24,000 nucleotides of DNA from an uncultured delta proteobacterium. Lineage in GTDB: Bacteria > Desulfobacterota > Desulfobacteria > Desulfobacterales > JAFDCJ01. Under the pieces are notes generated by a model that made no database searches, was not told where the DNA came from, and worked only from the letters and a program-made list of their open reading frames with translations. This document shows positions 3,778 to 23,687 of the stretch, piece by piece. Location: positions 567,890-591,889 of the forward strand of contig CAVYNY010000010.1 in NCBI GenBank assembly GCA_963769935.1. The letters are read 5' to 3'. The position numbers and the translations under genes are program-made. Each line of letters opens with the position of its first letter. Position 1 is the first letter of the stretch.

Positions 3778-4036
3778 TGCTTTTAAGGCCCTCACAAAAA
3801 TTTTTGAACTCTCAATCGGGAATTTGCCTTCTCCCGCGAAGCGACAGGATGCTATCAAATGCTTCCATCCAAGATCCTTCATAGCAGGGCTCCTTTAAAA
3901 CTAAAATGAGACGTTCAAACTAAGACGGGGCGTTCGTGCGAGCTTTTACAAATCGATAATCGCTGGTACTTCAAAATGCATCATCCGTCAAAAAATCTTA
4001 AATTCCCGGTCGAGGCAGGGCGCATTCGTATGGCCC

Positions 4037-4820
4037 TCAGGGCTGCAGGCCGACATTCGCGAGAGCGGTCCGGGCTGCTTCGGCGCTCAGCCGCTCGACG
4101 TGGGGCCTGACCTGCCGGATCACCTCCGGACTGAGAAACCGAAGATCGCTTTTCCAGGGAAAATCCGGCAAGGATGATTGGCTGCAGGGCGCCTGCGCGT
4201 AGCTTGCCAGGGTCGCCGGCCGAGTCTGGAAAATCGCGACAACGATGTTGGCATAGGGAGTTGCCGTGTTTTGGAAGGGCGAAAAAAATTGGGAGAGTCC
4301 CGAAAGAGCCTTGGTCCGGGTGTAGATTCCATAGCCTTTGGTGGCCACCGGATCATTAGCGATCTTAAAGCAGGCAACCTGCGGCCACCGGCCGGAGTCG
4401 TAGCTGCTTACGGAGATGATCAGATCCAGGCGGTTTTCTTCGGCGGTTTGGTTTATAAAGGCCTTGAGATCATCCCCCATCCACCCCGTAACGGCGTTGA
4501 GGATACTGTTTGACATCGACTGCTTCCAGTCTTGCGGGGCATTGCCCGCGATGGGGATAAACGTATAGCTGCCGCGGGCCCGCAAGTCACTTTCGATTGT
4601 CCGGGTGAGGTAACCCGGAATGTTCCAATCCACATTGTAATCTTTGGTAAAGCTGTCGAAGCGCAGCGATCCAACATCCACGTGGGTCATATCAGTCTCC
4701 AGCAGATTGAGGATGCCGATTCGGGCTTCCGGCGGCAACTGCAGCCGTACCGGTTGCGAACCCGCGCAACCCAGTTACGCTCATCATAATCAGAAACAAA
4801 GCAGGACGAAAGATGTGCAT
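4037..4820 (-). pseudogene. Hypothetical lipoprotein with a 1-nt frameshift inside the signal peptide (or an N-terminally truncated cytoplasmic version starting at TTG 4738)
   Basis: ATG at 4820 has a strong RBS (AAAGGAG, 9-nt spacer) and encodes MHIFRPALFLIMMSVTG... The main 233-aa ORF frame, read upstream of its TTG start, gives *LGCAGSQPVRLQLPPEARIG. Removing one A in GTAACTG (about 4774-4777) yields MHIFRPALFLIMMSVLGCAGSQ..., a textbook lipobox. The body has no family I can recognise. Confidence 0.55.
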
Positions 4821-4897
4821 GTGACAGGGCTCCTTTATTTTAGCAGCTAATTGACTGATTTTACGAAAAATGCCTGCTTAATTGTAATGGAAATTAT

Positions 4898-5116
4898 GAA
4901 AATCCCAAGCACCAAAAACCAAATCCCAAACAAATATCAATGATTCAAATTCAAAATTCCAAACAATTGAACCGTCCACAGTTGTGCCAACGGCATCATC
5001 ACCGGCAGACGAGGGGTTGAGAAGCGATGCGATACAACTATTTTGAATGTTTGGGTTATTGAATATTCAAAAATTTGCTATTTATTTGTAATTTGGTGCT
5101 TGAGATTTGGGATTTT
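4898..5116. repeat. Heptamer-periodic inverted-repeat element (about 219 nt) with a GC-richer unique core
   Basis: The left arm 4901-4963 is built of 7-mers: aatccca agcacca aaaacca aatccca aacaaat atcaatg attcaaa ttcaaaa ttccaaa. The right arm 5041-5116 is its imperfect reverse complement (tttggtgcttgagatttgggatttt versus aaaatcccaagcaccaaa). The core 4967-5040 contains the stem AGTTGT...ACAACT. A related module, ccaaaaaccaaat, recurs at 10839-10851. Confidence 0.5.
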
Positions 5117-5283
5117 ATTTTCTCACATCTTCTGGTCAAACTGGCTTAGAAGGCACTTTGGCGTGACCCTGGTGCATGTGATGACTCCTAACGAATCACT
5201 AATAGCTTCGACCTAAATTGAGCAATTAAATTGAGAAGATTGCTACAATCGCATGTGCAGGCAGGGACGTCCTCTGAGCTTTC

Positions 5284-8200
5284 CTAGCTTTTCAATTCGT
5301 TTGCCAATTTCAGGATGCCATCCACGTCAAAATCTTCAGACAGTTGAATGATTTTGTCACAAAAAGGTATCAGAACATTGTCTTCAGACTTCAATTCTTC
5401 GGCGATGGCCGCGGCTTGCATCACATCCCCCATTTCAGCCGCCGCTTTGATGCGATCGGCCGCTTTCTGAGCCAGATTATGCGGTACAACCAGCGTCCCG
5501 CCGCCGATCCTCTCGTTGGTTTTCTTTTCAGCCGTGGGCGCTATGATTTTAACCGCGTCCAGAGCCTGCTCGAGCGCACTTTCCAGTTCTGTTAATTTCC
5601 GGTTCAATTCCTTCTCGGAGGCAGACTTCGCAGTCTGCCCCTTAACAAGTTTTTCCATTGCCACGGCCGCCGCCTGAAGGTCGACGGCGGCCAGATTCCC
5701 GGCCAGCCCCTTCAGGTTGTGGATTAGGCTGTGGGTATGATTAAAATCATTGGCCGCCAAGGCTTCCCGAATTTCGGCGGCGGCGCTGCCGTAGTTGGCG
5801 CCGAAATCAAGCAGCAGCTTGCGGTAAAGGTGTTTGTTGCCCATCAGGCGCGCCAGACCGGCTGCCAGATCGAAGCCCGGCAATGATTCCGGCAGATGAT
5901 CTTCATCCGGCTCCGCCTGAACAGCTCCCGCGGATGCATCACTTGCCGGCGGCCCTACTGAGGCGGTTAAACTTTTTTGAACCACGATTCGCCCCGAAAC
6001 CGGCTTGATCCACTTTTGCAGGGCAGCAAACAGCTGGTCCGGATCAATCGGCTTGGTTACGTGATCGTTCATTCCGGCTGCAAGACTCTTTTGTTCGTCA
6101 CCGGACATGGCATGCGCCGTCATGGCGATAATTGGAAGGCCAAAGGCTAAAGGTGAAAGGCTAAAGGTTTCATCGCGGTATTCTGTCTTGTTTCCGCTAT
6201 CTCCGACTCGCTGTCCTATGTCCTCTGTCTTCTGACCTATGTCTTCTGCTTGCCGCGCCATAGCCCGGAGGGCGACGGCGGGTCCTCTGTCTTCCGCATT
6301 TACACTATGCGCTATGCTCTTTGCGCTAGGCTTTAAATTTTCAGCTTCCCACATCCGGATTTGCCTTGTGGCCGTGTATCCATCCATCACCGGCATCTGA
6401 ACATCCATGAGGACGGCCTCGAATTCCGCTGACTTTACCAGATCGACGGCTTCCTGGCCGTTATTGGCGATGGTGACTGTCAGCCCCGCCCCTTCCAGGA
6501 TCTCTTTGGCCACCTGCTGGTTGATTTCATTATCTTCCACCAGAAGCACCCGGGCTCCATAAATAGCCTTTAGCTGCCCGGCACTCGGTTCATTTGGCCG
6601 GCCGGCCGGAGATATGTCGTGAAGCTCTTTTCCCAGGGCCTGCATGACGGCATCGAACAGCATCGATGAGCTCACCGGCTTGATCAGAAAACCATCCAAT
6701 CCGATTTGATCGGCCTGCCGCATAATGTCTTCCCGACCGTAGGCCGTCACCAGGACGATGGCTGGGATTTTACTCAATTGTTTATGGGTCTTGATGCGCC
6801 CGGCGGCTTCGATGCCGTCCATGCCCGGCATCTTCCAGTCCATGATGACAAGCTCAAACGGTTTATCCCGGTCCACCCGTTCGATTTCCGCCAGGGCCGC
6901 TTGTCCGGAGGCTGCCAGAAAAACTTCGAATGAAAAAGATTCCAGAATTTCCTGCAGAATTTGGCGGGACGTGGCATTGTCATCCACCACCAGCACCTTC
7001 AAGCCTCGGATATCGGGCGACGGCACAAAACGCTTTTTGACCGCATCTTTTCCCAGACCGAAGACGGCCGTAAAATTAAAGGTCGTGCCTTTCCCGGACG
7101 CGCTTTCCACCCAGATCTCGCCGCCCATCAGATTGACCAGGCGCTTGCTGATGGTCAGCCCCAACCCGGTACCGCCGTACTTGCGCGTAGTCGAAGTGTC
7201 GGCCTGGGAGAAGGCCTGGAACAGCTTGGCCTGCTGTTCCGCCGTCATGCCGATGCCCGTATCCCGCACCGAAAACTGAAGGGTAACTTTATCCTCCGAC
7301 CTCATTTTTATCCGGGTGGTCAGCACAATCTCGCCTTGCTCGGTGAATTTTACCGCATTGTTTCCCAGGTTGACCAGGATTTGATTGAGTCTTAACGGAT
7401 CTCCGACCAGGAAGTTGGGCACCCGCGAATCGAGGTAGAACAAAACTTCCAGATTCTTTTTTTCCTGCGCTTTGATGGTGATCACATTGGCGACGTTATC
7501 CACGGTCTCCGATAGATCGAACTCCACGACTTCCATTTCCAGCTTGCCGGCTTCGATTTTTGAGAAATCCAAAATGTCGTTGATGATCCCCAGCAGAGAA
7601 TTGGCCGAAGATTGAATTTTGTTCAAATAATCCTGCTGCTTGGGCGTCAGCTCGGTTTTCAGCGCCAGGTGGGCCATACCGATTACGGCATTCATCGGGG
7701 TGCGGATCTCATGGCTCATGTTGGCCAGAAAATCGCTTTTGGCCCTGGTGGCGGCTTCGGCCTTAACCTTTTCTTCGTCGAGCTTCTCCATTATGTTAAG
7801 CATGGCCGATTGGGCCTCATCCAGTTCTTTAATGCGTTCATGCAGATCGTTCTCCATTTGTTTGCGCTCGGTAATATCCAGAAATGAGGCCAGGACATCA
7901 AGGACATCACCCTTTTCATCGCGCGTGCAGGCAACGGTTATATTGGTATATACGATTGCGCCGTCCTTGCGGATAAAGCGCTTGTCAAGGGTGTAGTTGT
8001 CGATTTGACCGGTCAGCATCCGTTCGAACTGTTTTACATCGGCAGTGAGATCGTCGGGATGGGTAAGCTCGGCCCAAGTCATCTGGCGCAGCTCATCCAG
8101 CGTATAGCCAAACATTCGCTGCAATTGATCATTGGCCTCCACCCATCCTTTGACCGGCGAGGTGATCGCCATTCCGGTCTGGCTATGCTCAAAATAACTG

Positions 8201-10596
8201 CGAAACCGGGCCTCTTTTTCCCGCATGCGCTCCCCCATCAGCTTACCTGCGGTAATGTCACGCAGTGATTCGATGGCACCCGCAACTTCACCGGCCGTAT
8301 TATAAAGCAGGCTGGCGGTCCCGCTGACATACATGCCGTTCTCGCCCAGCGCCGGGTGAAAGGATTCACTGATCAGGATTTCGCCGTCCTTTCTAACCGA
8401 CAGGTATTTCTTTTCATAGGTTGCATCCCAATCTTTTACCAGGTCGATTAAGACGGGGCGTCTTTCGCCGTAAAACGGCAAAGCATATTCATAATTACCC
8501 TTGCCGATCATATCCTCGGCGGGGATATTCAGAAGGTTTTCCATGGCCTTGTTCCAGGCGATCACGATGCCGTCGCAATCGATCACCCAGGTGGGGTCCG
8601 GTAAAAAATCGATAATCTGGGCCAGACGCCGCTGGGATTCCTTGGATGCTTTTTCAGTCCGCTGGCGCTCTTTCACTTCCCTGGCCAAAGTCCTGTTCCA
8701 GCGAAGAATGATAAGCAGAATAATTGCCGAGATCCCCACAGCGGCTGCCGCCACCCGGATGACCAAGCCCCAATCCACCTGTTGCTCAAAGCGGACATTG
8801 ATCCAGCGGTTTTGAATGTCTGTTTTTTCCGAATCCGGGACGGTGCCCAAGCTGATATTCAGGATGTTGACCAGGTCGGGCCAGTCTTTGCGCACCGCAA
8901 AGCGAAGATCATAGGTATCGGGGGTGGTCGTGACAATCTTGAGGTTGCTCAAACCCAATTTCTGCGTGGTATAGGTAATGGAGGCGAGATCGCCCACGAA
9001 GGCGTCTATGTGTTTCCTTGACAGGGCTCGCAGCGCATCCTCGATGTTGTCTGCCAGGTAAAACCTGCGGTTCGGATATTTCTCTAGGAGATATTCCTGA
9101 TTCGCACGATCTCGGACGAGGCCCACGCGACCGTCCTTAAAATCCTTGACAGTATTGCCGAATGGGACATTGTCCCGGGTGAGAATAACTTTGGGAGAAC
9201 TCAGGTAGGGATTTGTGAACAGAAAAACCTGCGACAGCTCCGGGGTCTTCGCCACACAGGGCAAAACGTCAATTTTTCCTGCTCGGGCAGCGTTCATGAC
9301 TTGAGTCCGGCTAAGCCCTTCAACCGGTTGCATGTTTATCTTCAACTGCCGGTTTAAGCGGCGGACATAATCTGCGGCGATTCCCGCAAAGATATGGGCG
9401 GCATCGAAATATTCAAACGGCGGCCGGTCCGGGTCCACACCGAGGCGGATATTTTTGTGCGCTGCCAGCCATGCCTTTTCGTCCACCGTCAGTTCGATGC
9501 TTCTTTGCCGGGGGGCGAGACGGGCCGCAATTTCATTCAGATCAAACTGGTACAGCTTGAGGGTTGGATTTTGGGCTTTGGAGAATTGACGAAAATCCAG
9601 CGATCGCACGGCCTGGGAGGTAAACGGAGCCAGGCTTTGGGCGTTGGCCCGCGTCAGGGCGACCATGGCCGATCCGAACTGCAGCTGTTCATTGGCGAAA
9701 TCGACGCCGTTGAGGTAGTCGAACAACAAGACGACGGCCCAGGCTCCATCCAAAAAGTGTCCTCCCACACTCACCTGCATATGGTCCTGCTGAATGGCTT
9801 CGAGGGCGTCTTTATCCCAATCGACCCCGCCGATGAGGATTTTCCGCTTTAGATGCAGCTCTTGAACAGCCTTCACCACACCCATCGCCATATTGTCGTT
9901 GGCGCACCACACAATGTTCACATTCGAATGCGAGCTGTAATAATCTTTAAATTGGTCATAGGCGGTTTGGCGGTTCCATTTGCCCGCGACAATTTTGAAG
10001 GCATCCAGCCCCTTTAAGTGTTTCAGATATTGGCTAAGGCCTCTCACCCGGTCGATGGAAGACTCATCTTTGGGATTGCCCTCGATGGCAAGCACATCAA
10101 AACGCTCGATGCCTTTTGATCTGGCCTCATTGATCAGTTGCTGAATGAGAAGGGTCCCGGCCTTGACATCATCCGGCAGCACACTGCTGATCCAGTATTC
10201 ATATTTGGTGCGCGGCAGAAGATCCTTTTCCGGCAGTTGGGAATTAATGAGTATGGCGGGCGTTTTATGATCTTCGGCAATCTGCAGGATCCGTTCGCCG
10301 GTGTTTTGGTACGCCAGAAAAATAATGCCGTCAATTCCTCCCCGGACGGCTTCTCTAACCTGCGCCACCATTTTCTCCGGATCGTCGTCGGCGTTAAAGG
10401 CCTGAAGTGTCACTCCCAGATCCGCGGCGGCTTCTTTAGTGAAAAAGACGGCTTTCGTCCAGAAAGGATCGTCGCGAGGGTAAAAAATGGCAACCTTGAA
10501 GTTTTTGGCGTATAGCGGCGGCGGCGCTGCGAGGCCTAAAAGAAGCAAGCATGTAATAAGAATTGAAAAAATGCATGGGGGAGTGAAACGTGCCAT
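5284..10596 (-). CDS. Hybrid sensor histidine kinase, 1770 aa: signal peptide, PBP type-1-like domain, SBP_bac_3-like domain, TM, PAS x2-3, HisKA, HATPase, REC, REC, HPt, C-terminal extension
   Basis: Uninterrupted 5.3-kb ORF. Signal peptide: [30 protein letters not shown]. Sugar-binding-protein-like region: [13 protein letters not shown]...[11 protein letters not shown]. Amino-acid-binding-like region: [16 protein letters not shown]... TM: [23 protein letters not shown]-box: [18 protein letters not shown] boxes: [26 protein letters not shown]1: [24 protein letters not shown]2: [35 protein letters not shown]. HPt: [14 protein letters not shown]. Confidence 0.92.
6136..6345 (-). repeat. In-frame, heptamer-built 70-codon segment in the alpha3-beta4 loop of REC2 of the 1770-aa kinase
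   Basis: It lies between the conserved IRMWE and [10 protein letters not shown] motifs. On the plus strand there are three blocks of 7-nt tandem units. Block 1, 6140-6167: ccaaagg ctaaagg tgaaagg ctaaagg. Block 2, 6183-6252: ten in-phase units including ctgtcct atgtcct ctgtctt ctgacct atgtctt. Block 3, 6303-6330: cactatg cgctatg ctctttg cgctagg. REC1 of the same protein has only 7 residues in this loop. Confidence 0.6.
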
Positions 10597-11035
10597 TGCC
10601 GCCTCTTGCTAAGTGCATGTATTCGTAAATACGCTAACGTATAAGAATAAAGCCGAACTATTGACAAAATACTGTTTTCCTGTGAATACGTTACTGTAAT
10701 TACGAAATAGAGTACTACTTCTTTAGGTATAAGGTTTGTCCTCCGGTCCTTGGGCAACTGTTATCAAATGGGATCGGAGGAACCTTTTCGGGGACGCCGC
10801 TCGAAGCGGTTGGTTTAGATTAAACTAAACACGAAACGCCAAAAACCAAATATCAAGCACCAGAAATTCTTGCCAAAAGATTCGTTTTTAACTTTTTACA
10901 TCGCCATCATTTTAGCTAATCAATCTGCCCTGACTGCCCTGAAAAATAACGAAAATTCAGACAATGGCTCATTATTTTCATTTGGGTAGTCTGTCAATTT
11001 TATAAAGATCGATAGAGCGAAGCGATTCAATAATT

Positions 11036-11072
11036 TTAGGCACTTTAGGCACTTTAGATCATTTTAGGCACT
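11036..11072. repeat. Tandem 9-mer array TTAGGCACT (3 good copies and 1 degenerate) in the inter-kinase spacer
   Basis: ttaggcact at 11036-11044, 11045-11053 and 11064-11072, with degenerate ttagatcat at 11054-11062. aggcacttt also occurs at 5151-5159. Confidence 0.6.
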
Positions 11073-11144
11073 TTTTTACAATACAATATCAGTATGTTAT
11101 AAAAGCTGCCGGAAGTTAAAATAAATAGGACACAGCAGAATTGA

Positions 11145-14114
11145 TTATCTTCTCAATTCATCCGCCAATTCCAGGATACCACTCAGGTCAAAATCCTCAG
11201 ACAGTTGAATTATTTTGTCACAAAAAGGTGTGAGACCATTATTTTCAGACTTCAACGTTTTGGCAATCGATGCTATTTGCACCACATCTCCCATTTCAGC
11301 CGCCGCTTTGATGCGATCGGCCAGGTCTCGAGCTATTTCGGGGGCTATACAGGCCATTTCGGATTCGGTGCACGCGACGGTTTTCTTTTCAGACATGGGA
11401 ACCAGGGTTTGAACCGCGTCCAGCGCCTGCCCGAGAGCTTCTTGCAGGTCTGTTAATTTCCGGTTCAATTCTGTATCGGAGGCCGCCTCCCCTGCCCACC
11501 CTTTAACGAGTTTTTCCATTGCCACCGCTGCTGCCTGGAGGTCGACGGCGGCCAGATTTCCGGCCAGCCCCTTCAAGTTGTGAACCAGGCCGTGGGCACG
11601 ATTAAAATCTTTGGCCGCCAATGCCTCACGGATGTCAGCGGCGGCGCCGCAGCAGCTGGCGCCGAAATCAAGCAACAGCTTGCGGTAAAGGCGCTTGTTG
11701 TCCATCAGACGCGCCAGACCCGCCGCCAGATCAAAGCCCGGCAAAGATTCAGGCAGTTCATCTTCATCCGTCTTCGCCTGAACAGCCTGCGCTGGTGCAT
11801 CAGGTACCGGTGACCCTCCTGAGGCGGGCAAACTTTTTGGGTCGACGATCCGCTCTGCAGCCGGTTTGATCCACTTCTGCAGGGCGGCAAACAGCTGGTC
11901 CGGATCAATGGGTTTGGTCACATGATCGTTCATCCCGGCCGCCAAACTCCTCTCCCGATCGCCGGCCATGGCATGGGCCGTCATCGCGATGATAGGAATG
12001 GGATGCTGGATGCTGGATACTGGATACTGGATACTGGTTGGCGGCAGTTCAGAGGACTGAGGACCCGTCTTCGTCGGGGTAAGTGAGGGAATACGCCGCG
12101 GCGAGCTGAGGACCGAGGGTTGGCCCTCGATTTCGGATTTTAAATCAGAATCCTCTCCGACAGTCTTCCTTGTTTTCAATACATCAGTATCCGCGTTAGC
12201 GGAGACTGATTCCCACTTCCGGATCTCCCGTGTGGCTTCAAAACCGTTCATCTCAGGCATCTGTATATCCATGAGCACCACATCGTAGATCCGCTCCTTG
12301 ACCATCGCCGCTGCTTCTTTGCCGTTGTTGGCAATGCTCACCACCAATCCTGCGTTCTCCAGAATCTCCTGCGCCACCTGCTGATTGATCGCATTGTCCT
12401 CCGCCAGCAGCACTTTTGCCCCGCGAATCTTATCAAGCTCCTGCGCCGCATCGGTCCCCGCCCGGGCTTCGCGCTCAAGCTCAGGAACTTCCTTGCCGAA
12501 AGCGGCCATGATCGCGTCAAAAAGCATGGACTGGCTCACGGGTTTGAGGAGAAAACCATCCAAGCCTATTTTCTCGGATATCCGCATGAGCTCTTCACGG
12601 CCATAGGCCGTCACGATGATAATCTTGGGCTTGCGGGGGATGTCGGAATGCCTGTTGATAATTTCGGAAGCCTCAATGCCATCCATCCCCGGCATTTTCC
12701 AGTCCATCACCACCAGCTGATACGGCCGGAGCTTCGCTTCCCTCGCCAGTTCTGCGATGCCCTCCTCCGCCGAGGCTGCCACTGAAACCTCAAAACTCAT
12801 GCTCGCAAGCAGCGTCTGTAGAATCTCACGGGAGGATGCATTGTCGTCCACGACTAAAACCCGCATCCCCTTCAGATCCAGCGACGGCTCCAGGTATCTC
12901 TCCGTCACTCTCCCCGTTAAACCGAATTTTGCGGTGAATATGAAATTGCTGCTCTTGCCGGGTTCGCTCTCAACCCAGATTTCCCCTTTCATCATGTTCA
13001 CCAGGTGCTTGGAGATGGTCAGCCCGAGCCCCGTTCCCCCGAACTTGCGCGTCGTGGACGAATCCGCCTGGGTAAAGGCCTCAAACAGCTTCTGCCTCTG
13101 CTCGGGGGTCACTCCGATCCCCGTGTCGCGAACGGAAAATCGAAGCATCACCCATTGTTCCTCTTTTTCCACCATTTCGGTGGCAAGCACGATCTCTCCG
13201 GCCTCTGTAAACTTCACCGCATTGTTGCACAGGTTGGTCAGCACCTGGCCCAGCCGCAATGGATCCCCCACCAGCGCCATGGGCACCTCCGGCGCCGTAT
13301 CCATCAGGAACTCCAGCTTTTTGTCCTGAGCCTTCACACCGGCAATCGTCGCTACGTTATCCAGGACTTCATCCAAGCCGAAATCCACAGACTCCATGTG
13401 CAGCTTCCCCGCTTCAATCTTGGAAAAATCCAAAATGTCGTTGATGATTCCCAGCAGGGAATTGGCGGAACGCTGGATCTTGTTCAAATAATCCTCTTGC
13501 TTGGGGGTCAAGGCCGTCCGAAGCGCCAAATGAGCCATTCCGATCACGGCATTCATGGGGGTCCGGATCTCATGACTCATGTTGGCCAGAAAATCGCTCT
13601 TGGCTTTTGTGGCGGCCTCGGCCGCCTGCTTGGCGAGGTGCAGTTCCTCAGCTCTGGTTTTTAATTCTTCGTTTTTGGCCTTCAGGTCGTTCAAAAGTTC
13701 CAGCCTGGAGGGACGTGCCAGACTTTGTCTTTGCATTTCGACAAACTCATCCGACAGGTGACCGGCGCTATCCGGCAGATAGCTGAATGTCCTGATTCTG
13801 ACCGTCTTCTGCTCAGTGCGGTCGATTTCAAATGTGTCAAAAAAAAATTTTAAATTCGGCATTGAGATCAATTGCTCAGGGCACTGAAAGGTCATCCATA
13901 GTCCGCTCCGGCCCTCACGCCGGTCAATGCCGACAGAAATTTTTGTGCCCTTGCCGCCCTTTCTTCCCAAGCCGGTGATTTCAGAAACAATCGTTTCCAG
14001 CCGGGTGGCATGAATCGGTTCGCAGCCTAAATCTTCGGCCAGCAAGCGAATCTTTTTCCGCGCCGCAACTCTGGTATTTTCGTTCTTTACCGATAAATTA
14101 CCGAGTTTGATCAT
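11145..14114 (-). CDS. Cytoplasmic hybrid histidine kinase, 989 aa: novel N-terminal domain, coiled coil, HisKA, HATPase, REC, REC, HPt, C-terminal extension. Paralogue of the 1770-aa kinase.
   Basis: Intact ORF with RBS GGAGG and a start that overlaps the rsbX-like stop by 17 nt. No TM segment. H-box [16 protein letters not shown]; [10 protein letters not shown]; DTGIGV; GGTGLGL. REC1: [27 protein letters not shown]2: [35 protein letters not shown]. HPt: [14 protein letters not shown]. From the H-box to the C-terminus it aligns by eye at roughly 70-75% identity with the 1770-aa protein. Confidence 0.92.
12000..12209 (-). repeat. In-frame segment of about 70 codons in the alpha3-beta4 loop of REC2 of the 989-aa kinase, containing a 7-nt tandem array
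   Basis: It lies between IRKWE and (I)[10 protein letters not shown]. Plus strand 12001-12035 reads ggatgct ggatgct ggatact ggatact ggatact, which encodes [13 protein letters not shown]; the repeat is therefore at DNA level, not protein level. The distal end has cagtatcc (12186-12193), complementary to ggatactg. There is an internal hairpin GAGGGttggCCCTC. Confidence 0.6.
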
Positions 14115-14709
14115 GCTTCCTACCTCCCAGATACTTCAGCACAATACAGGATGCGTCATCATTTTCCTTCCAAAATTGCTTGAGCAGCGCGCTGGCGATG
14201 GATTCCGCGGTACCTTTCAGTATTTCCGGACACTCGGAGAGTTCGAAATGCTCCTTAATGCCGTCTGAATGCATAACGAGAACATCTCCAGCCAATAGTT
14301 TCAGGGCTTGCTTTTTGACGGTGGACATCATGTAGCCGACGATTCCATCTCTGGAAACGAATCGAACGGCCCTCGGACCGAGCACCCTTACCACGATGTT
14401 GCCCATACCGACGTAAATCAGCTCGCCTGTCGCGGTGTCCAAACGGCAAATGGCCGCCACGGCGCCCCGCGTGCCCTTGAGACACGTATGCAGACCCTGC
14501 ATAACTTCGACCGGCTCTTTGCGGCAATTCTGTTCCAGATACGTTTGGGCTGTAAGCGCAACATCATGCGCTTCGCGCCCGTGGCCCAGCACATCAACCA
14601 GTGCCAGAAAACACCGGCCGTCAAACTCTTTTATGACCCCCGTGTCGCCGCATTCAGCTTCTCTTCGGGTAAGCGCTCGCTTTACCAGATGGCAGTCCAC
14701 TCTTGACAT
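14098..14709 (-). CDS. rsbX: PP2C/SpoIIE-type serine phosphatase, RsbX-like (about 203 aa)
   Basis: The start is taken at MSRVDCHL (ATG 14709) inside track ORF 14098..14997, because the upstream part of that ORF overlaps the rsbT-like gene. The sequence ECGDTG...ALVDVLGHG...[12 protein letters not shown]...GMGNIVVRV...LVMHSDGI parallels B. subtilis RsbX (..CGDSF..AVADGLGSG..RGATASILK..SVGNVRF..IIHTDGL). Confidence 0.8.
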
Positions 14710-15142
14710 AATCGCCCCACTTCCGTGTTGAAACAACGGTGCCGCGCCCCGGCTGAGACTCGATCCTGAACTCGTCCATAATCCGTTTAACGCTCGGCAA
14801 TCCCAGCCCCAGGCTGCCTTTAGTCGTGCTGAAATTATCCTGCAGCGCCTGTTCGATGTCTCTGATTCCCGGCCCGTCGTCACGGGCAATAATTTCGATG
14901 CCCAAGCGGTTGTTGCGTTGGACAATTCGCAAGGTAAGTTCGCCTTTTTGGGCATAGTTGACGATGTTGGTCGCGAGCTCTGAAGCCGCTGTGGCAATCA
15001 AAAACTGATTGACTTCATCGAAACCGGCCGCAGCAGCCAGGTGTCTCGCCGCTGTAATCACCTGCTCCTTGTCGTTCTGATCGGACAGCAGGATTCGTCT
15101 TTCATTATATTTCGGCGGGGCGGCCCGTTCATTGTTCACCAT
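14654..15142 (-). CDS. rsbT: RsbT-like GHKL serine kinase / switch protein (anti-sigma regulatory factor family)
   Basis: ATG 15142 has an AAGGGG RBS; the track ORF starts at GTG 15157. The start overlaps the rsbS-like stop by 14 nt. The sequence VITAARHLAAAAGFDEVNQFLIATAASELATNIVNYAQKGELTL..IIARDDGPGIRDIEQALQDNFSTTKGSLGLGLPSVKRIMDEF parallels B. subtilis RsbT (ISELARNIYLYAG..AEDQGPGIPD..GFSTSGGLGAGLPGVKRLMDEF). Confidence 0.85.
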   Translation of the reverse strand: MVNNERAAPPKYNERRILLSDQNDKEQVITAARHLAAAAGFDEVNQFLIATAASELATNIVNYAQKGELTLRIVQRNNRLGIEIIARDDGPGIRDIEQALQDNFSTTKGSLGLGLPSVKRIMDEFRIESQPGRGTVVSTRKWGDYVKSGLPSGKASAYPKRS

Positions 15143-15584
15143 CGCTGTCCCCTTCACCGTTTTCTATTACGATGCTATCCGGGTCCTCAGCGTCCTGAAC
15201 CCCCTCCTGAATCGATAAAACGTTTTGGATCTGCTCGAACCCGTCTTCCATGGTCAGGGCCGCACGGATACCATCGATTTCGACCTCCAGATCGATCAGC
15301 GACGATACGACGCCGGGCTGCAGGCCGACGAATACGTTCGCCACCCCCAGCAGCGACGTCATCCGCGCGGTGTCGGCCAGGAATTTGAACGCATGCGAAT
15401 CCAGGGCGCGCACCGTACTAAGGTCCAGTATCATCCCCCGTACTTTCGCTGCTTGAATTTTCTGCAAAATGGCCGTTCGAATTTTCATCAGCGTGTCATC
15501 GTAAAGCTCACCCTGCAAGGTAACCACAAGACAGCCGCGGATGGTGCTCATTGCGGTTTCGCTATCGATCAGCAGGCCTTTCAT
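15129..15584 (-). CDS. rsbS: RsbS-like STAS-domain protein with an acidic C-terminal tail
   Basis: The ATG lies 2 nt after the rsbR-like stop. The sequence CLVVTLQGELYDDTLMKIRTAILQKI..GMILDLSTVRALDSHAFKFLADTARMTSLLGVANVFVGLQPGVVSSLIDLEVE parallels B. subtilis RsbS, including the phosphorylatable Ser context (MIDSFIAK versus ALDSHAFK). Confidence 0.85.
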   Translation of the reverse strand: MKGLLIDSETAMSTIRGCLVVTLQGELYDDTLMKIRTAILQKIQAAKVRGMILDLSTVRALDSHAFKFLADTARMTSLLGVANVFVGLQPGVVSSLIDLEVEIDGIRAALTMEDGFEQIQNVLSIQEGVQDAEDPDSIVIENGEGDSDGEQ

Positions 15585-15586
15585 TA

Positions 15587-16411
15587 TCAGGATTTCCTCC
15601 CCAGGGGCTTGATTTCGCGCACCTCAAAATTCATCATCTTGAACGAATCCTCCAAGGCGTCTCTTAAAGTAGAGTTGGTCTTGACCTCACCCATCTCGAT
15701 TCCCAACTGGACGATCGTACTCGCCACAGCCGGCGAAATCCCGGAAATAATACACTGGCAGCCCATCAGCCGCGTGGCCTTGGTGATCTTGATCAGGTGA
15801 TTGGCCACGGCGGTGTCGACCGCTGCCACGCCCTGGATGTCAAGGATGATTACCTTGGCCGACGTCTCCTTTATTTTGGTCAGCATGGTGTTGGTCATCT
15901 GCTGAGCCCGCATGGAGTCGATCACACCCACCACCGGAAGGACCAGCACCCGGTCCCAGAGTTCGATGGTCGGCGTCGATATCTCCCGGATCGTGCGGCT
16001 TTGTTCTTCCAACCTTTGTTCATCGCGGACCTTCTCGCTGATGTCGAGCATAAATTCCAGACCTCCGATGACATTTCCTTCCGGGTCTTTGAGTGGGACG
16101 GCATAGTATTCAATGTACACGGTTTGATCGCCCATTGGAATCTCATTCCGACCGGACCGAACCTCATAATTCTCTATGGCCTGAAGCATTCGGCAGTCCA
16201 TGGTCTGGCAATGGGCTGAACCAAATAGATCGTAACAGTGCTGTGTTGCGACCTCCTCCCATGACTTGCCGAGGAATTTGCGACCGGCGGCATTCATGTA
16301 AATGATTTCCAAGTCTTTATTCACCGCCATTACCGGGGTAGGAATTTGTTCCAGAATCTGCTCCTGAATTCCAGAATATGCCTGATTTTCTGTTTTGATC
16401 TTTTCGTTCAT
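15587..16411 (-). CDS. rsbR: RsbR-like stressosome sensor: N-terminal Cys/His-rich PAS domain plus C-terminal STAS domain
   Basis: RBS AGGAG. The C-terminus VIILDIQGVAAVDTAVANHLIKITKATRLMGCQCIISGISPAVASTIVQLGIEM closely parallels B. subtilis RsbRA (IDITGVPVVDTMVAHHIIQASEAVRLVGCQAMLVGIRPEIAQTIVNLGIEL). The N-terminus is PAS-like (IPTPVMAVNKDLEIIYMNAAGRKFLG...). Confidence 0.85.
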   Translation of the reverse strand: MNEKIKTENQAYSGIQEQILEQIPTPVMAVNKDLEIIYMNAAGRKFLGKSWEEVATQHCYDLFGSAHCQTMDCRMLQAIENYEVRSGRNEIPMGDQTVYIEYYAVPLKDPEGNVIGGLEFMLDISEKVRDEQRLEEQSRTIREISTPTIELWDRVLVLPVVGVIDSMRAQQMTNTMLTKIKETSAKVIILDIQGVAAVDTAVANHLIKITKATRLMGCQCIISGISPAVASTIVQLGIEMGEVKTNSTLRDALEDSFKMMNFEVREIKPLGRKS

Positions 16412-16481
16412 TTTTTTCTCCTTTTTTATAAGGACAATACAGTCTTAACTTTGATTTCGTTGAATATTTTTAATTTTTTTT

Positions 16482-16560
16482 ATCACGAAAATACGAAATA
16501 TAGAAAGCACGAAATTTATCTTATCTTTTTCGTGTTTTCGTCCTTTCGTGCTTTCGTGAT
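16482..16560. repeat. Imperfect 33-nt inverted repeat built of (t)ttcgtg(n) 7-8-mers, between the asmA-like and rsbR-like genes
   Basis: Left arm 16482-16514: atcacgaaaatacgaaatatagaaagcacgaaa. Right arm 16528-16560: tttcgtgt tttcgtcc tttcgtgc tttcgtga t. 26 of 33 positions are complementary, with a 13-nt loop. T-runs flank it on the plus strand only. Confidence 0.6.
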
Positions 16561-16617
16561 TATTTTTTTGGTTTTCGCGGACCCGGGTTAGGGTTTTAAA
16601 CCGATATTCAACCGAGT

Positions 16618-19600
16618 CTATTGCCCGATGCTGTGGATGTTGCACGGATGGGCTTTATAAGCGCCGAGGTTGACAAAGGGCGCCAACAGTCCGAGCGGGC
16701 CGATCACCAGCGCACTGAGGGCCTTGGCGCCTTTCGATAATAGAGAAAACATATCCGGCCGCACCTTGGGGTCCGTGATCGGGCCGCTGACGCGCAGCTT
16801 GGTCCAAAAGTCCATGAGGCTCGGAAATCTGGGCTCCGGAACGAGCAAAAAATCAACCTGTTCCGTGCCCAGATTGATGTCGCCTTCGCCGGTCAGCACA
16901 CCCGCCTCGGTGTCGAACACGAACGCTTGGCTGGCTGCTATTCCGCTGCTGATATCAAATTGAACGACGGCGCACTTGATTTCTCCGCCTTCGTGGTGGC
17001 TGCCCCAGAAATGAATGACCTTTCTGGTAAGACCCAGCGAAATCAGGTCCAGGTAGTGGGTCAGGTAGCCTTTGCCCATGACGGCCCCCACGCTGCCGTC
17101 CAGACCGGCCATCAGATCATGCAGGGAGCCGCCCCGGCTATTGACATCGACGGCGATATCGAGGTGGGAACGGACCTGCTGGCTGATCCGCAGTCCCCGC
17201 AGAAGTCCGCCGAGGTCAAAGTCCTGGACGAGGAATTTGGCGGCGACCCGGGCCGGCGATTCGGGATAGAGATGGAAGTTGCCGGAAATTCGGGTCTGCT
17301 GGTAAGTCGCCTGAAGCGTTTCGACGTTGAGATCACCGTTCTCGACGGTGAGCATCAGGCGGCCGAACTCAAAGTTTGCATCGCGGGCGCGGACGTTTTT
17401 AGCATTCAGGCTGATGTCTGCGTCCACTTGCTTGAGAATATTTAAAGGCAGCGGATCATCGCTGAATAATCGGCCTTCCAACCTGCCGGGCTCCCTACCG
17501 GGCTCTTTTTCGTCCTGCCTCAGATTTTTCAGCAGCGCCGTCATATCCAGCAGCGAAGATTCCAGTCTCAATGTGATCTTCGGGCGTTCGCGAAACTCAA
17601 CTTTTGCCAGGCCGTTGAAGTCGCTTTTATCGACGACCGCCGTCAAATCGGCCAGGGAAAAAGACCGGGCCGACCCGCTGAGATGTCCGCTGAAATCAAA
17701 GGGGCCCAGTTCGGGGAGGTTGGCGCCGACCAGGGGACCGATCTCGGCCAATTCCTTTCCCCCGGCTTTCAGCCTCAGGTCCATGCCTTCGAGCGCCGGC
17801 AGGTCTTTGATTGTCCCGGTTGCCTCCAGGCTTAAGCTGCCGCGCCGGGCCTCGCCCCGGACCTCCTGCAGGGACAACGCCCCGGCTGAGCCCGCCAGGC
17901 GACCCTGCAGTGAAAACGCATCGGTCGGGGGCAGCTTCTGTCCGACAATTGTCTCAGCCTGGGCCAAGTCCTTGCCGGCCCCTTTCAGTCGCAGATCCAC
18001 ATGCCGAAAGGCGCGCAGGTCCCCAATCTTGCCGGTTACCGTCAGGTTCAGGTCGCCGCGTAGGGCCTGGCCCATAATGTCATGCAAGGACAGCGCCCTG
18101 CCGGAGCCCGTCAGACGGCCCTCCAGAACAAATTCATCCGTCGACGGCAGCTTCTGTGCTATGATCGACTCCGCCTGTGCCAGGTCTTTACCCGTACCCC
18201 TCAGCCACAAATCCACGTAGCGGAAGGCCGGCAGGTCCTCGATCGCACCCTCGACCGTCAGGTTCAGGCTGCCGCGCCGGGCCCGGCCCCGGATATCATG
18301 CAGGGCCAGCGCTCTGCCGGAGCCCGTCAGGCGACCCGCCAATTCAAATTCATCGGTCGAAAGCAGCTTCTGCCCGATGATCGACTCCGCCTGTGCCAAG
18401 TCATGGCCCGTGCCCTTAAGCCGCAGATCCACTTGCCGAAAGGCAGCCAGGTCCCCAATAGCACCTTCGGCCGTCAGGTTCAGGCTGCCGCGATGGGCCC
18501 GGCCCTGAAAATTCTGCAGGGACAGGGCTTTGGCTGAGCCAGTCAGACGACCCTGCAGGGCAAACTCATCGGTCGGCGGCAGCTTTTGACCGACAATCTC
18601 TCCCACCTGCGCCAAGTCCTTGCCCGTACCCTTGAGCTGCAGGTCCACGCCCTGGAAAACAAGCAGGTCCCCGATTGCACCCTCGGCCGCCAGGTTCAGG
18701 CTGCTGCGCCGGGCCTGTCCCCGAACGTCCTGCAGGGACAAGGCCTTGGCCGAACCCGTCAGACGGCCCTCCAGGGAAAACTCATCGGTCGGCGGCAGCT
18801 TCTGACCGACCATCGCTCCCACCTGCGCCAGGTCCTTGCCCGAACCCTTTAGCTGCAGGTCCATGTCCTGCAGCGCCATCAGATTGCCGACTCGACCGCT
18901 GACGGCCAACGCAGCCTCGCCGGCCGACACAGTGCCGCTGATGTTTTCCAGCATAGGAAACCGGCCGGAACCTGCCAAATGTCCGCTGAGATCGAAAGCG
19001 TCCGTCTGCGGCAGCTCTGCACCGATACCACGCCCTAACTCCTGGAGGCTCTTCCCAGCGACGCGAAACTTCAGATCAAGCCCTTGCAAAGCGCGGACCT
19101 CACCGATCGATCCGGCGAGGTTGACGGTTGCGCTCAAAAACCGTCCTGCCAGCTCAAGCGGAAACTGTTCGCCTGATACGATCCGCTGCAGCCGGCCGAT
19201 CCGGCCGGAAAGCGCAACGGGCTGCCCGTTGTAGTCGGCCTGGAGCTTGAGCGCCAGAAAATCAGGATCTGCCCGCCGGGCTATTTCAAGGCCGGCCAGA
19301 TTGAACCGGGTCGTATGGGCCGCTTTCTCATCGCGATAGGTGAGCTTAAGGTTTTCGACCCGGATATCCTCCACCGCGATATGCAGGCGGGTGGGCGGGC
19401 CGGATGGCGATGCAGAGCCGGCAGAGGCTGTAAATTGCCAGTTGCGTTGCCCGGCTGCATTCATCACCAGGACCACATCGACGCCGGATAGCGTAAGATA
19501 CTTCAACTCGACATCACCGAACAACAGCGGCAGGAGCCGGACCTTGGCCTCTATTCGCCGGGCGGTTATCATCTGCGGGTCGGAAGCCCAGGGGGCGTTG

Positions 19601-19818
19601 GCCAAAGCCACTTCCGTGACCATAAGGGCCGGTGATAAACCGAATTTAAGACCCACCTCGCCGCCCAGCGTCAATTCCCGGCCGGTGCGTTCTGCGACCA
19701 TCCGCTCGATCCGCGGCTTGAGCTTGGCGTAGTCGTAGGTGCTCAAAACCAGATAGGCCGCTGCCGCCAAAGCGACAATTAAAGCGGCCCCGACCAATGC
19801 AATCCATTTCCAACGCAT
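16618..19818 (-). CDS. AsmA-family protein (1066 aa) with an expanded internal repeat region
   Basis: Intact ORF. The N-terminal TM anchor and AsmA-type start are MRWKWIALVGAALIVALAAAAYLVLSTYDYAKLKPRIERMVAERTGRELTLGGEVGLKFGLSPALMVTEVALANAPW. The C-terminus is AsmA_2-like (..DLNVETLQATYQQTRISGNFHL.. GGEIKCAVVQFDISSGIA). Confidence 0.85.
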   Translation of the reverse strand: MRWKWIALVGAALIVALAAAAYLVLSTYDYAKLKPRIERMVAERTGRELTLGGEVGLKFGLSPALMVTEVALANAPWASDPQMITARRIEAKVRLLPLLFGDVELKYLTLSGVDVVLVMNAAGQRNWQFTASAGSASPSGPPTRLHIAVEDIRVENLKLTYRDEKAAHTTRFNLAGLEIARRADPDFLALKLQADYNGQPVALSGRIGRLQRIVSGEQFPLELAGRFLSATVNLAGSIGEVRALQGLDLKFRVAGKSLQELGRGIGAELPQTDAFDLSGHLAGSGRFPMLENISGTVSAGEAALAVSGRVGNLMALQDMDLQLKGSGKDLAQVGAMVGQKLPPTDEFSLEGRLTGSAKALSLQDVRGQARRSSLNLAAEGAIGDLLVFQGVDLQLKGTGKDLAQVGEIVGQKLPPTDEFALQGRLTGSAKALSLQNFQGRAHRGSLNLTAEGAIGDLAAFRQVDLRLKGTGHDLAQAESIIGQKLLSTDEFELAGRLTGSGRALALHDIRGRARRGSLNLTVEGAIEDLPAFRYVDLWLRGTGKDLAQAESIIAQKLPSTDEFVLEGRLTGSGRALSLHDIMGQALRGDLNLTVTGKIGDLRAFRHVDLRLKGAGKDLAQAETIVGQKLPPTDAFSLQGRLAGSAGALSLQEVRGEARRGSLSLEATGTIKDLPALEGMDLRLKAGGKELAEIGPLVGANLPELGPFDFSGHLSGSARSFSLADLTAVVDKSDFNGLAKVEFRERPKITLRLESSLLDMTALLKNLRQDEKEPGREPGRLEGRLFSDDPLPLNILKQVDADISLNAKNVRARDANFEFGRLMLTVENGDLNVETLQATYQQTRISGNFHLYPESPARVAAKFLVQDFDLGGLLRGLRISQQVRSHLDIAVDVNSRGGSLHDLMAGLDGSVGAVMGKGYLTHYLDLISLGLTRKVIHFWGSHHEGGEIKCAVVQFDISSGIAASQAFVFDTEAGVLTGEGDINLGTEQVDFLLVPEPRFPSLMDFWTKLRVSGPITDPKVRPDMFSLLSKGAKALSALVIGPLGLLAPFVNLGAYKAHPCNIHSIGQ
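17563..19074 (-). repeat. Coding tandem array, 7 x 216 nt (72 aa); the central five copies are highly similar
   Basis: The protein units start L(Q/R)LKG(S/T)GKDLAQ..GQKLPPTDEF.L.GRLTGS..ALSL....G.A.RGSLNL...G.I.DL..F..VD. They cover aa 249-320, 321-392, 393-464, 465-536, 537-608, 609-680 and 681-752; the first and last are degenerate. At DNA level, neighbouring central copies (17779-18858) are about 90% identical by eye over stretches such as actcatcggtcggcggcagcttctgaccgac. Confidence 0.85.
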
Positions 19819-19986
19819 GGCACACTTTACCTTTGCCGGCAGTTTTTTTGCTGCGGCGTTTCTTAATGTAAGGGTCTAATCTTCCTCAATAAACGGAAAT
19901 TGGAAAAAGTAACCGCTGTGGCTCAGCAAATTTATCACAAAAACCGCAAAAATTTACCCCCCAACGATACCAAGACGAGTAAACCA

Positions 19987-20005
19987 TAGCGAAATATGTG
20001 CCAAT
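19987..20005 (-). promoter_or_regulatory. Predicted sigma-54 (-24/-12) promoter P1 upstream of the asmA-like gene
   Basis: Minus strand reads ATTGGCACATATTTCGCTA: TGGCAC at 20003..19998 and the -12 GC at 19990..19989, with canonical spacing. It is about 170 nt upstream of ATG 19818 and directly downstream of the sigma-54 activator gene. Confidence 0.6.
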
Positions 20006-20101
20006 CTGGCAACAACTGATTGAAGGCGACATAAGGTGCCTTGGTAGCTGGGTTTATTCTCAGATGGAATGGGAAAAGCCGGCTTAAGAAATGCGGTGAT
20101 A

Positions 20102-20117
20102 TGCCGATATTTCGGCA
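20102..20117. promoter_or_regulatory. Predicted enhancer (UAS) palindrome TGCCGA-N4-TCGGCA
   Basis: TGCCGATATTTCGGCA lies 100 bp upstream of the -24 GG of P1 and 20 bp after the bEBP stop codon. An identical 16-mer with identical spacing to a second sigma-54 promoter is at 3742-3757. Confidence 0.55.
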
Positions 20118-20136
20118 GAACGCCCGTATTACAGCA

Positions 20137-22815: not shown

Positions 22816-23042
22816 CCGAAGCCTCCTTGAGCTTCTGCCGCTGCCCCCGTCAGCTTGTCAAATTCCCGCATACGTGAAATTGATCGCCGACTTCGGTTCA
22901 GGTTTTCTCGAATCCAATCTATATGTGGATTCAAAACCTCAGATCAGGGGTTTTGAAACCACTTCCAGCCAATAACGACCATTAACTACACCCAAAGTTG
23001 ATCTATTGTCAAAGCCAATTTATTGTCAATTCCATGCGTTAC

Positions 23043-23687
23043 CTATTCGGGTGATGACGTTTTGTAAGGCCAGGAGCAAAATTTATTTAAAGGACATGCC
23101 GGGCATTTTGGTTTGCGGGCCGTACAGGTTTCGCGTCCGAAAAAAATAAGCCTCAACGAAAAATCACGCCACTCCCGTTTCGGTATGATTTTCATCAAAT
23201 CGAACTCGATTTTCACCGGATCTTTGTTGTCTGTCAGGCCCAACCGCTGCGCAATTCGACCGACGTGAGTATCCACCACGATTCCAGGGGTCTCGAAAAC
23301 TGCTCCCAGAACAACATTGGCGGTCTTGCGCCCGACCCCGGGGAGATTGGTCAGTTCCTCCAAAGTGCCCGGCACCATGCCTTTATGGACAGCCAATAAC
23401 GCTTGGCTGCAATTTTTGATATTTTTGGCTTTGTTGTGAAAGAAACCCGTCGGACGGATTAGCTGCTCGATGGCATTCAACGGCGCTCCGGCAAAATCAG
23501 AAGGCGTTTTCAGGTGCTTAAACAGTTCGCCGGTAACCCGATTGACCTGATTGTCGGTACACTGCGCCGACAGGATGACGGCCACCAGCAGCTGAAAGGG
23601 CGTTTCGTAATTCAGCGGGGTTTTGACTTCCGGGTAGCGTTCTCTAAGAATTTTGCGGATTCGATCAACGCGGTTTTTAAAGTTCAT
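23043..23687 (-). CDS. nth: Endonuclease III (DNA-(apurinic/apyrimidinic site) lyase / glycosylase)
   Basis: 214-aa ORF. FQLLVAVILSAQCTDNQVN; HhH-GPD motif LPGVGRKTANVVLG; catalytic VDTHV; C-terminal 4Fe-4S ligand pattern CTARKPKCPACPLNKFC (C-X6-C-X2-C-X5-C). Confidence 0.92.
   Translation of the reverse strand: MNFKNRVDRIRKILRERYPEVKTPLNYETPFQLLVAVILSAQCTDNQVNRVTGELFKHLKTPSDFAGAPLNAIEQLIRPTGFFHNKAKNIKNCSQALLAVHKGMVPGTLEELTNLPGVGRKTANVVLGAVFETPGIVVDTHVGRIAQRLGLTDNKDPVKIEFDLMKIIPKREWRDFSLRLIFFGRETCTARKPKCPACPLNKFCSWPYKTSSPE

Follow-up and report, generated by a model that had tools for sequence, protein, structure and literature searches.

The stretch of DNA analysed here (the window) comprises 24,000 nucleotides (nt) of contig CAVYNY010000010.1 from an uncultured Desulfobacterales bacterium. 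It carries the gene for a 1770-residue hybrid sensor kinase, K1770, whose second receiver domain (REC2) holds 70 in-frame codons of DNA with a seven-base period. Our best reading of this segment, from its sequence and open frame, is heptanucleotide simple-repeat DNA that accumulated in a permissive coding loop and would be translated as a disordered extension. The gene, the segment and its parts are the following.

5284 to 10596, minus strand: K1770, 1770-residue hybrid sensor kinase (open reading frame (ORF) list and translation), in the order PBP, SBP_bac_3, transmembrane region, PAS, HisKA, HATPase_c, first receiver domain (REC1), REC2, HPt
6136 to 6345, minus strand: 70-codon in-frame segment with a 7-nt period in the α3-β4 loop of REC2, predicted to be disordered
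6346 to 6360, minus strand: IRMWE codons, the end of helix α3 and left boundary of the segment
6285 to 6336, minus strand: 5' block of CATAGCG- and CAAAGAG-type units (layout; Tandem Repeats Finder array 6305-6328)
6248 to 6284, minus strand: nested GC-rich mini-element, GACCCGCCGTCGCC...GGCGCGGCAAGC, which breaks up the heptamer tract (nhmmer profile)
6178 to 6250, minus strand: central purine-rich block of about ten units of the GACAGAR or GACATAG type (Tandem Repeats Finder, layout)
6134 to 6168, minus strand: 3' block, on the coding strand CCTTTAG CCTTTCA CCTTTAG CCTTTGG, peptide FSLSPLAFG

Pfam assigns PBP, SBP_bac_3, PAS, HisKA, HATPase_c, two Response_reg domains and Hpt to K1770. The Response_reg match (PF00072) is split by the insert, leaving three Response_reg stretches (E = 7.8e-49). 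The peptide of 6136-6345 comprises 70 residues (AENLKPSAK...SLSPLAFGL) between IRMWE at the end of α3 and strand β4 of REC2, whereas REC1 of the same protein has about 8 residues at the equivalent position.

The segment has a strong seven-base periodicity. Its self-match at lag 7 is 0.512, compared with 0.259 ± 0.031 in shuffled sequences (z = 8.3), and none of 5000 shuffles reaches the observed value; against codon shuffles, z is 8.5. The top-scoring 210-nt windows at lag 7 in the whole 24 kb fall in this segment, and the remainder of the gene lies at 0.23-0.24. Lag 7 also exceeds lag 14 (0.43) and lag 21 (0.40), and the usual lag-3 coding signal falls away inside the segment. Both observations uphold the proposal of the sequence-only reading that the periodicity is made at the DNA level and only read in frame. 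Tandem Repeats Finder independently calls period-7 arrays at 6136-6167, 6212-6243 and 6305-6328.

In rows of 21 nt, the units keep their heptamer register between the W-E and the L-P codons, even through 35 nt of GC-rich sequence without a heptamer pattern of its own, and this register seems to extend into the IRMWE codons. The 5' block is 86-91% identical to the loop of P0015 (locus L081), the closest relative of the insert, whereas three units of the 3' block are missing there. The second 3'-block unit, read directly, has TCA where TAG would fall in frame. The unit type of the central block yields EDRGQKT heptads in dozens of homologous loops. The segment is a composite of at least three heptamer blocks and a nested mini-element.

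An in-frame segment in this loop had been claimed at 70 codons. The in-frame placement stands, and the size needs correction: compared with homologues without an insert, which have 16 residues from MPVMDG to PIIAMTA, the net gain is about 65 codons (about 195 nt). The related argument that 210 nt is a multiple of 21 does not hold up, since the figure depends on where the boundaries are drawn. It is no general rule either, because loop length minus 16 has no preference for multiples of 7 residues (no excess at 0 modulo 7 across 135 loops).

The segment is not an assembly artefact, because an independent metagenome assembly reproduces it. Contig_97174 of European Nucleotide Archive (ENA) assembly ERZ25039495 is 99.7% identical to the window over 20 kb. 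It contains the 1770-residue ORF and the identical 210 nt except for one single-nucleotide polymorphism (SNP) at 6329, inside the insert (P1423H). An exact look-up of the K1770 protein gave no match; the protein of the near-identical contig departs from it in one residue. The two near-identical assemblies differ by only 5 SNPs in 4815-24000. In 3931-4814 (window against L168) they diverge sharply, with 49 differences, and similarity is lost before 3931; a boundary of recombination or rearrangement between strains may lie here.

For the locus of the segment, Rfam gave no family. Its sole gathering-level match in the window is to domains D1-D4 of a group II intron (RF02005, 105 bits, E = 3e-29), a fragment on the minus strand at 572-822. 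No intein domain was found in the K1770 protein by Pfam. A self-splicing intron or intein was rejected as the identity of the segment on these two results. The insert also had no match in a plasmid collection.

AlphaFold2, run on a 10-sequence alignment (A1), returned the strands and helices of REC2 in canonical order with predicted local distance difference test (pLDDT) values of 85-93, and values of 24-33 for the insert (residues 78-140 of A1). In the CheY fold, the α-to-β loops lie on the face opposite the acidic phospho-acceptor pocket. An insertion at the α3-β4 loop, already argued from position to be plausible, is sterically reasonable because the fold is predicted to stay intact and these loops face away from the acid pocket. 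The model supports the α3-β4 loop as a permissive site, and translation together with AlphaFold2 places the insert in frame in a tolerated surface region. Most likely, no role of the peptide depends on its sequence.

A second kinase gene in the window carries a loop of the same kind.

11145 to 14114, minus strand: K989, 989-residue hybrid kinase with a HisKA-HATPase-REC-REC-HPt core (translation)
11997 to 12209, minus strand: REC2 α3-β4 loop of K989, 71 codons, ending in (CCAGTAT)3(CCAGCAT)2

K989 is 60% identical in amino-acid sequence to residues 911-1769 of K1770, and its loop sequence is unrelated to the K1770 insert. The loop nevertheless has a lag-7 match of 0.39 (z = 4.6) and a Tandem Repeats Finder array at 12001-12037 with 96% matches. 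Within the two kinases, seven-base periodicity is confined to the REC2 loops.

A search with the C-terminal 571 residues of K1770 gave 120 homologues of 58-69% identity, mostly from Joint Genome Institute and ENA metagenomes; the few that carry names are labelled Desulfobacterales. Together with 50 metagenome loci for which DNA was available, these homologues provided about 135 distinct loops, a family of kinases from sediment sulfate-reducer relatives. In a profile scan of genome contigs with alignment A1, distant kinases made up most of the matches listed, and only a few loci from Desulfobacterales were of use. Between MPVMDG and PIIAMTA of REC2 lie 16 residues at the least (YTATREIRKDERFKEL) and up to 92 in the 120 proteins, or up to 113 in the 50 loci. 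Long loops are the rule, with only about 15 of the 135 being short. A conserved, non-periodic domain of the same length in homologues, which would have spoken against a repeat origin, was not found; homologous loops of 16-113 residues occupy the position instead. In the 50 loci, insert DNA has lag-7 values of 0.34-0.86 (mostly 0.5-0.7), compared with 0.14-0.29 in the 300 nt on either side, and the flanks of the loop are almost invariant across the family.

The recurrent loop peptides are exact translations of heptamers: ELKAQSS from AAAGCTC, EDRGQKT from GGACAGA and HPASSIQ from CATCCAG, and likewise SNLQPPT from TCCAACC and GMRNAE from GGAATGC. Across the family, heptamers are read in all three phases. 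The longest perfect runs in any loop amount to about 4 units. A W-E pair (TGGGAA) is common to about 30 of 37 insert-bearing loops and is missing from insert-less loops.

In several loops the array visibly starts in native codons. The 17-residue loops consist of (GAAATCC)x5 starting in native E-I-R codons (L108), and the arrays of L095 and L099, (ATTCGGA)(ATTGGGA)(ATGCGGA), start in native I-R-N codons. Because arrays of relatives begin in native α3 codons, we read the W-E pair as a variant heptamer unit in frame. TGGGAA and TTCCCA were also considered as universal terminal inverted repeats and rejected, as the right-hand ends of the loops vary.

Where they can be aligned, the inserts of K1770 and P0015 are 86-91% identical, whereas the upstream coding DNA of P0015 is only about 67-70% identical to that of K1770. 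By gene context (PAS-STAS, STAS, HATPase_c_2 and SpoIIE upstream) and 76% identity, P0015 belongs to the K989 lineage; despite that identity, the loop contents of K989 and P0015 are unrelated. The K1770 and P0015 inserts differ by a 69-nt indel spanning the nested mini-element and by a 21-nt indel that is exactly CCTTTAG CCTTTCA CCTTTAG. Comparable 21-nt gaps occur once between L163 and each of L147, L158 and L159, and twice between L095 and L135. An all-against-all alignment of loops was too permissive for indel lengths, and we relied on clean pairs and on local peaks at 21, 42 and 63 nt. The 21-nt indels separate relatives with about 85-94% identical loops, and at 99.7% identity there is no length difference. 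Loop length is likewise unchanged in the near-identical pairs L115/L116 and L137/L139. The loops of K989 and P0104, its 92%-identical orthologue, are equally long and differ by scattered substitutions. For this pair the ratio of nonsynonymous to synonymous substitution rates (dN/dS) is 0.19 upstream of the loop, 0.31 downstream of it and 0.43 in the loop itself, the last value coming from 14 differences, too few to decide.

At five distinct loci (L142 and L145, from two metagenomes, count as one), the two halves of REC2 lie in different frames, with the shift in the loop only.

L089, 536 to 874: out-of-frame loop
L113, 3647 to 3928: out-of-frame loop
L129, 3492 to 3928: out-of-frame loop
L142/L145, 3618 to 3928: out-of-frame loop
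L133, 1787 to 1891: out-of-frame loop

The ORFs around these loops are open, over 156-1167 codons upstream (three exceed 600 and two reach the contig end) and 274-285 codons downstream, and the frameshifted loops are mostly long. They could be phase-off alleles, young pseudogenes or mis-assembled repeats.

The loop also coincides with a step in similarity between the two kinases of the window. DNA identity between K1770 and K989 is 0.5-0.7 from HisKA to α3 of REC2 and 0.77-0.88 from β4 to the stop codon (5284-6135 in K1770 and 11145-11996 in K989). The corresponding values for four-fold degenerate third positions are 0.43 on the upstream side (n = 148) and 0.69 on the downstream side (n = 103). 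This step suggests gene conversion, or an exchange of modules, with the loop as the breakpoint. No such step was found at the loop between K989 and P0015. The comparison of right-arm type with upstream flank identity (0.775 vs 0.711) carries a weak phylogenetic signal that does not decide between vertical descent and exchange.

Residues 5-926 of K1770 are 85% identical to a stand-alone 971-residue sensor, P0121. On the syntenic contig L169 (8001-14392), P0121 is followed by a V4R gene and then by a separate 973-residue kinase with an unrelated loop. K1770 is a recent fusion, specific to its lineage, that joined a stand-alone sensor to a kinase core and in which the C-terminal tail of the sensor, the V4R gene and the N-terminus of the kinase were removed. 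To judge by these patterns, the kinase family is evidently recombinogenic.

In many loops of the family the left part is rich in purines and the right part, complementary to it, in pyrimidines; such loops have inverted heptamer arms. We folded the RNA of 37 loops and compared them with dinucleotide shuffles: z fell below -2 in 9 of the 37, with a mean of -1.2. L136 forms an almost perfect hairpin (z = -8.3) and L126 a strong one (z = -5.1), and long one-sided arrays such as L105 remain unfolded. A stable mRNA hairpin was ruled out for the K1770 segment (z = +0.9), in which inverted arms were not found.

The only stable local hairpin in the fold of the K1770 segment is the mini-element at 6248-6284. 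An nhmmer profile built from four GC-rich pieces found related copies in the K989 loop (12059-12107, in the opposite orientation relative to the gene) and at six further loci.

L132, 3665 to 3705: mini-element copy
L123, 3791 to 3831: mini-element copy
L087, 3199 to 3247: mini-element copy
L129, 3792 to 3831: mini-element copy
L113, 1280 to 1325: mini-element copy
L109, 749 to 778: mini-element copy

Heptamer units such as GAGGAC surround almost all of the copies. The mini-element is 37-49 nt long and GC-rich (GGACCCGYCKTCG ... CGCCGCGGCRAGC) and occurs in either orientation in the loops of different kinases. It may be a very small mobile palindromic element.

Heptamer tracts are also found outside the kinase genes. 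The window contains 10 lag-7 periodic tracts, compared with 0-5 for the other lags among 4-14 and 0.55 expected from shuffles. Three of the intergenic ones are listed here.

4899 to 5116, strand not applicable: intergenic inverted repeat downstream of K1770, arms AAATCCC / AAGCACC ... GGTGCTT / GGGATTT
10816 to 10866: intergenic heptamer-periodic tract upstream of K1770 (lag-7 scan)
23692 to 23891: intergenic inverted repeat, TGTCCGT TGTCGGT TGTCAGT ... ACTGACA ACGGACA ACAAACA ACAGACA (Tandem Repeats Finder, lag-7 segments)

The first of these has 42-nt arms, 76% complementary and 134 nt apart, with lag-7 segments at 4896-4963 and 5081-5116; the last has 24-nt arms, 83% complementary and 152 nt apart. 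A kinship between the K1770 segment and these two inverted repeats had been proposed from composition. The shared heptamer phenomenon is borne out and sequence similarity is not: a BLAST search of the insert against 1.4 Mb of fetched loci matched REC2 loops of the kinase family only, and the intergenic elements gave no match.

A survey of tracts inside and outside coding sequences, suggested at the outset, was carried out on 438 kb of family loci, which were chosen for having the loop. It found 129 tracts, 80 of them outside long ORFs and 49 inside. Of the latter, 37 were automatically classed as REC2 loops, and inspection added 10 of the remaining 12, giving about 47. The same heptamer units and their reverse complements occur in non-coding DNA. 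Further Desulfobacterales loci resemble the window in this respect. L014, from Desulfococcaceae bacterium HSG8, has 11 tracts in 11.6 kb; among them are arrays 300 nt long with CTGACGA-type units and perfect hairpins with heptamer arms. Three in-frame inserts lie in its kinase.

L014, 5620 to 5720: insert in the β-hairpin of HATPase_c, a TGTCAGT/ACTGACA hairpin
L014, 6662 to 6701: insert in the REC2 loop
L014, 6819 to 6875: insert in the REC2-HPt linker

Three other repeats were recorded in the window. An intergenic hairpin at 16481-16565, with tandem 8-nt arm units (CACGAAAA TACGAAAT ... / TTTTCGTG TTTTCGTC CTTTCGTG CTTTCGTG), has an architecture like that of the heptamer elements with a period of 8. 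Between the two kinase genes, upstream of K1770, the unit TTTAGGCAC is repeated in 4.3 tandem copies (11035-11074) and could be a set of regulator binding sites. A 1066-residue AsmA/DUF748-like ORF (16618 to 19818, minus strand) contains a 216-nt (72-codon) tandem repeat in 4.8 copies of 77% identity at 17836-18863.

We favour, with a probability of roughly 60%, the birth and turnover in place of heptamer arrays resembling the short tandemly repeated repetitive (STRR) sequences of cyanobacteria, combined with inverted duplication, insertion of mini-elements and exchange among paralogues, the product being disordered and without a sequence-specific role. A short array would arise on the native codons for I-R or E-I-R where α3 ends, and slipped-strand mispairing would lengthen or shorten it in 7-nt steps. 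Functional alleles would be the survivors with net changes of multiples of 3 nt and with units free of in-frame stops. Inverted copies of arrays, probably made by template switching, would give rise to hairpin arms, and the small GC-rich palindromic element would occasionally insert within the tracts. Homologous recombination or gene conversion would transfer whole loops and downstream modules between genes, a step we propose because the flanks are highly conserved among many paralogues. The K1770 copy would be old and degenerate, and hence fairly stable now.

Several observations weigh against this explanation. The K1770 segment folds no better than its shuffles. About 47 of the 49 long-ORF tracts lie in one loop, which is more site-specific than passive tolerance alone predicts, although the loci had been selected for the loop. 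A long loop is kept by most of the family, so a spacer may be under some selection. The dN/dS of the K989/P0104 loop is below 1, on its 14 differences. The five out-of-frame loci, with their intact flanking ORFs, make switching rather than simple decay possible. The K1770 segment has the same length in both near-identical assemblies, so slippage is not demonstrated for this copy. Finally, seeding, template switching and gene conversion have been deduced from sequence patterns.

The best placed of the alternatives, though an unlikely one, is a variable-number repeat maintained by selection, either a contingency or tuning locus like NeuO or a diversification cassette. A change of one or two heptamers would shift the frame and remove β4-α5 of REC2 together with HPt, turning output off, and steps of three units would alter loop length and tune signalling. 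The frameshifts confined to the loop fit this idea, all the more as one recurs in two metagenomes and the affected loops are mostly long. So do the 21-nt indels between relatives, the retention of the insert in most of the family, and the precedent of NeuO, in which translated, disordered heptanucleotide repeats modulate activity (PMC3046976). The units of K1770 are degenerate, however, perfect runs in the loops stop at about 4 units, and no length change is seen at 99.7% identity or in the two near-identical pairs. The frameshifts at the repeats may be errors of assembly or sequencing, and free-living sediment bacteria with dozens of paralogues offer no obvious selective regime known for phase variation. 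A broader form of the idea, to which we likewise give little credence, is that the loop is a selected diversification device and not tolerated junk. Slips by one or two units would switch REC2/HPt output off and on again, as phase variation in free-living sediment bacteria, and the conserved flanks and hairpin-prone repeats would serve as a crossover point for trading output modules and whole loops among dozens of paralogous kinases. On this same reading, heptamer arrays and their inverted copies might be written in these genomes by an active process that does not depend on sequence.

Transposition of a mobile palindromic element with heptamer-periodic arms, comparable to Rickettsia palindromic elements (RPEs) or miniature inverted-repeat transposable elements and inserted in frame independently into the loops of different paralogues, ranks next and is improbable. 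At 210 nt the segment is about as long as the intergenic inverted repeats (218 and 200 nt). Hairpins are formed by many loops of the family, the small nested element recurs in both orientations, and RPEs demonstrate that in-frame palindromic insertions are tolerated (PMC10969869). The much greater likeness of the K1770 and P0015 inserts than of their upstream host sequence could also be taken this way, but the raised similarity runs on into the downstream module, which fits recombination between paralogues. Neither conserved termini nor target-site duplications were found, right-hand ends vary, and the arms are built from many unrelated heptamers. Growth in place and exchange among paralogues are favoured over transposition of a defined element because arrays begin in native α3 codons and the insert matches only REC2 loops of its own family, not the intergenic elements.

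A low-complexity or heptad repeat selected for its amino-acid sequence is very improbable. Peptides with a seven-residue period do occur (AEDIGQK / TEDIGQR), charged residues are abundant in the segments, and dN/dS is below 1 in one pair. Against this, the DNA match is higher at lag 7 than at lag 21, one and the same heptamer is translated in each of the three phases, non-coding DNA contains the units and their reverse complements, the 76%-identical orthologues K989 and P0015 have unrelated loops, and the insert has no predicted structure in the AlphaFold2 model. An assembly artefact or chimera, conceivable in a repeat-rich region of what is probably a metagenome-assembled genome (MAG) with repeats prone to mis-assembly, can be dismissed given the second assembly, the open frame and analogous loops in more than 100 independent contigs.

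If growth in place is the correct explanation, the heptamer-repeat process becomes open to study at one definable site of a well-understood fold, with hundreds of independent alleles. These alleles would record birth from native codons, growth by 7 nt, inversion to hairpins, nested insertion, loss by frameshift and transfer between paralogues, and the mutational process could be measured directly from metagenomic reads. The loops would be a natural example of non-coding-type repeat DNA turned into protein sequence. For two-component signalling, they indicate that a receiver domain can accommodate up to some 100 additional residues in its α3-β4 loop, and they raise the possibility, open to test, that the REC2 loop is where kinase output modules are shuffled or switched. 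For annotation, they call for caution, as the low-complexity loops in these kinases reflect DNA repeats and not domains.

Heptanucleotide repeats have been known since the STRR sequences of cyanobacteria and were later found in giant sulfur bacteria. Our literature searches found no published description of heptamer repeats in Desulfobacterales or Desulfobacterota. We take CCCCAGT, TTGGTCA and CAACAGT to be the consensus units of cyanobacterial STRRs. TAACTGA repeats occur in Beggiatoaceae, cyanobacteria and Bacteroidetes (MacGregor 2015, PMC4679880). None of these four units has tandem copies in the window or the family loci; TAACTGA was found only in L030, a Thiotrichaceae MAG, in which its recovery in tandem served as a positive control for the heptamer-unit search. 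The likeness to STRRs drawn in the sequence-only reading thus survives as many dispersed, mainly intergenic tandem heptamer arrays with a shared preference for period 7, and falls away for the characteristic STRR and TAACTGA units. The kinase-loop repeats further differ in their Desulfobacterales host, their other units and their frequently inverted arms. Forward TAACTGA arrays contain stop codons and are untranslatable, whereas the kinase-loop units are read through a protein domain.

For the nested piece only, there is a further resemblance. Elhai and colleagues reportedly described, in Genome Research in 2008, small dispersed repeats nested in other repeats in Nostoc. The mini-element (6248-6284 and 12059-12107) resembles these by description only.

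RPEs are in-frame palindromic repeat DNA of about 100-200 nt within genes, encoding a peptide at a tolerated surface position with the host fold intact (PMC10969869). The K1770 insert is likewise in frame and in a tolerated surface region. The RPE analogy nevertheless did not carry over: RPEs form defined sequence families with a conserved peptide in many unrelated genes, whereas the kinase-loop content is idiosyncratic, recurs almost only in the same loop of one paralogous family, and has apparently grown in place from native α3 codons.

NeuO of E. coli K1 (CUS-3 prophage) is the closest functional analogue. Its poly-ψ tract consists of (AAGACTC)n in the coding region, three units encoding one disordered RLKTQDS heptad, and the frame is kept only by copy numbers divisible by three (PMC3046976). 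In the K1770 family, too, tandem 7-nt units lie in frame within an ORF, three units give one seven-residue heptad of the EDRGQKT type, and the product, translated as judged from the open frame, is predicted to be disordered. The NeuO tract repeats a single perfect unit and lies at the 5' end of the gene; its high-frequency slippage is proven, and repeat dose affects activity. The kinase loops have many different, degenerate units in an internal loop of a receiver domain, often as inverted arms with nested elements, and AAGACTC is absent from the window and the family loci. With these likenesses and differences, the kinase-loop repeats are a further form of the in-frame repeat phenomena known from NeuO poly-ψ and the RPEs.

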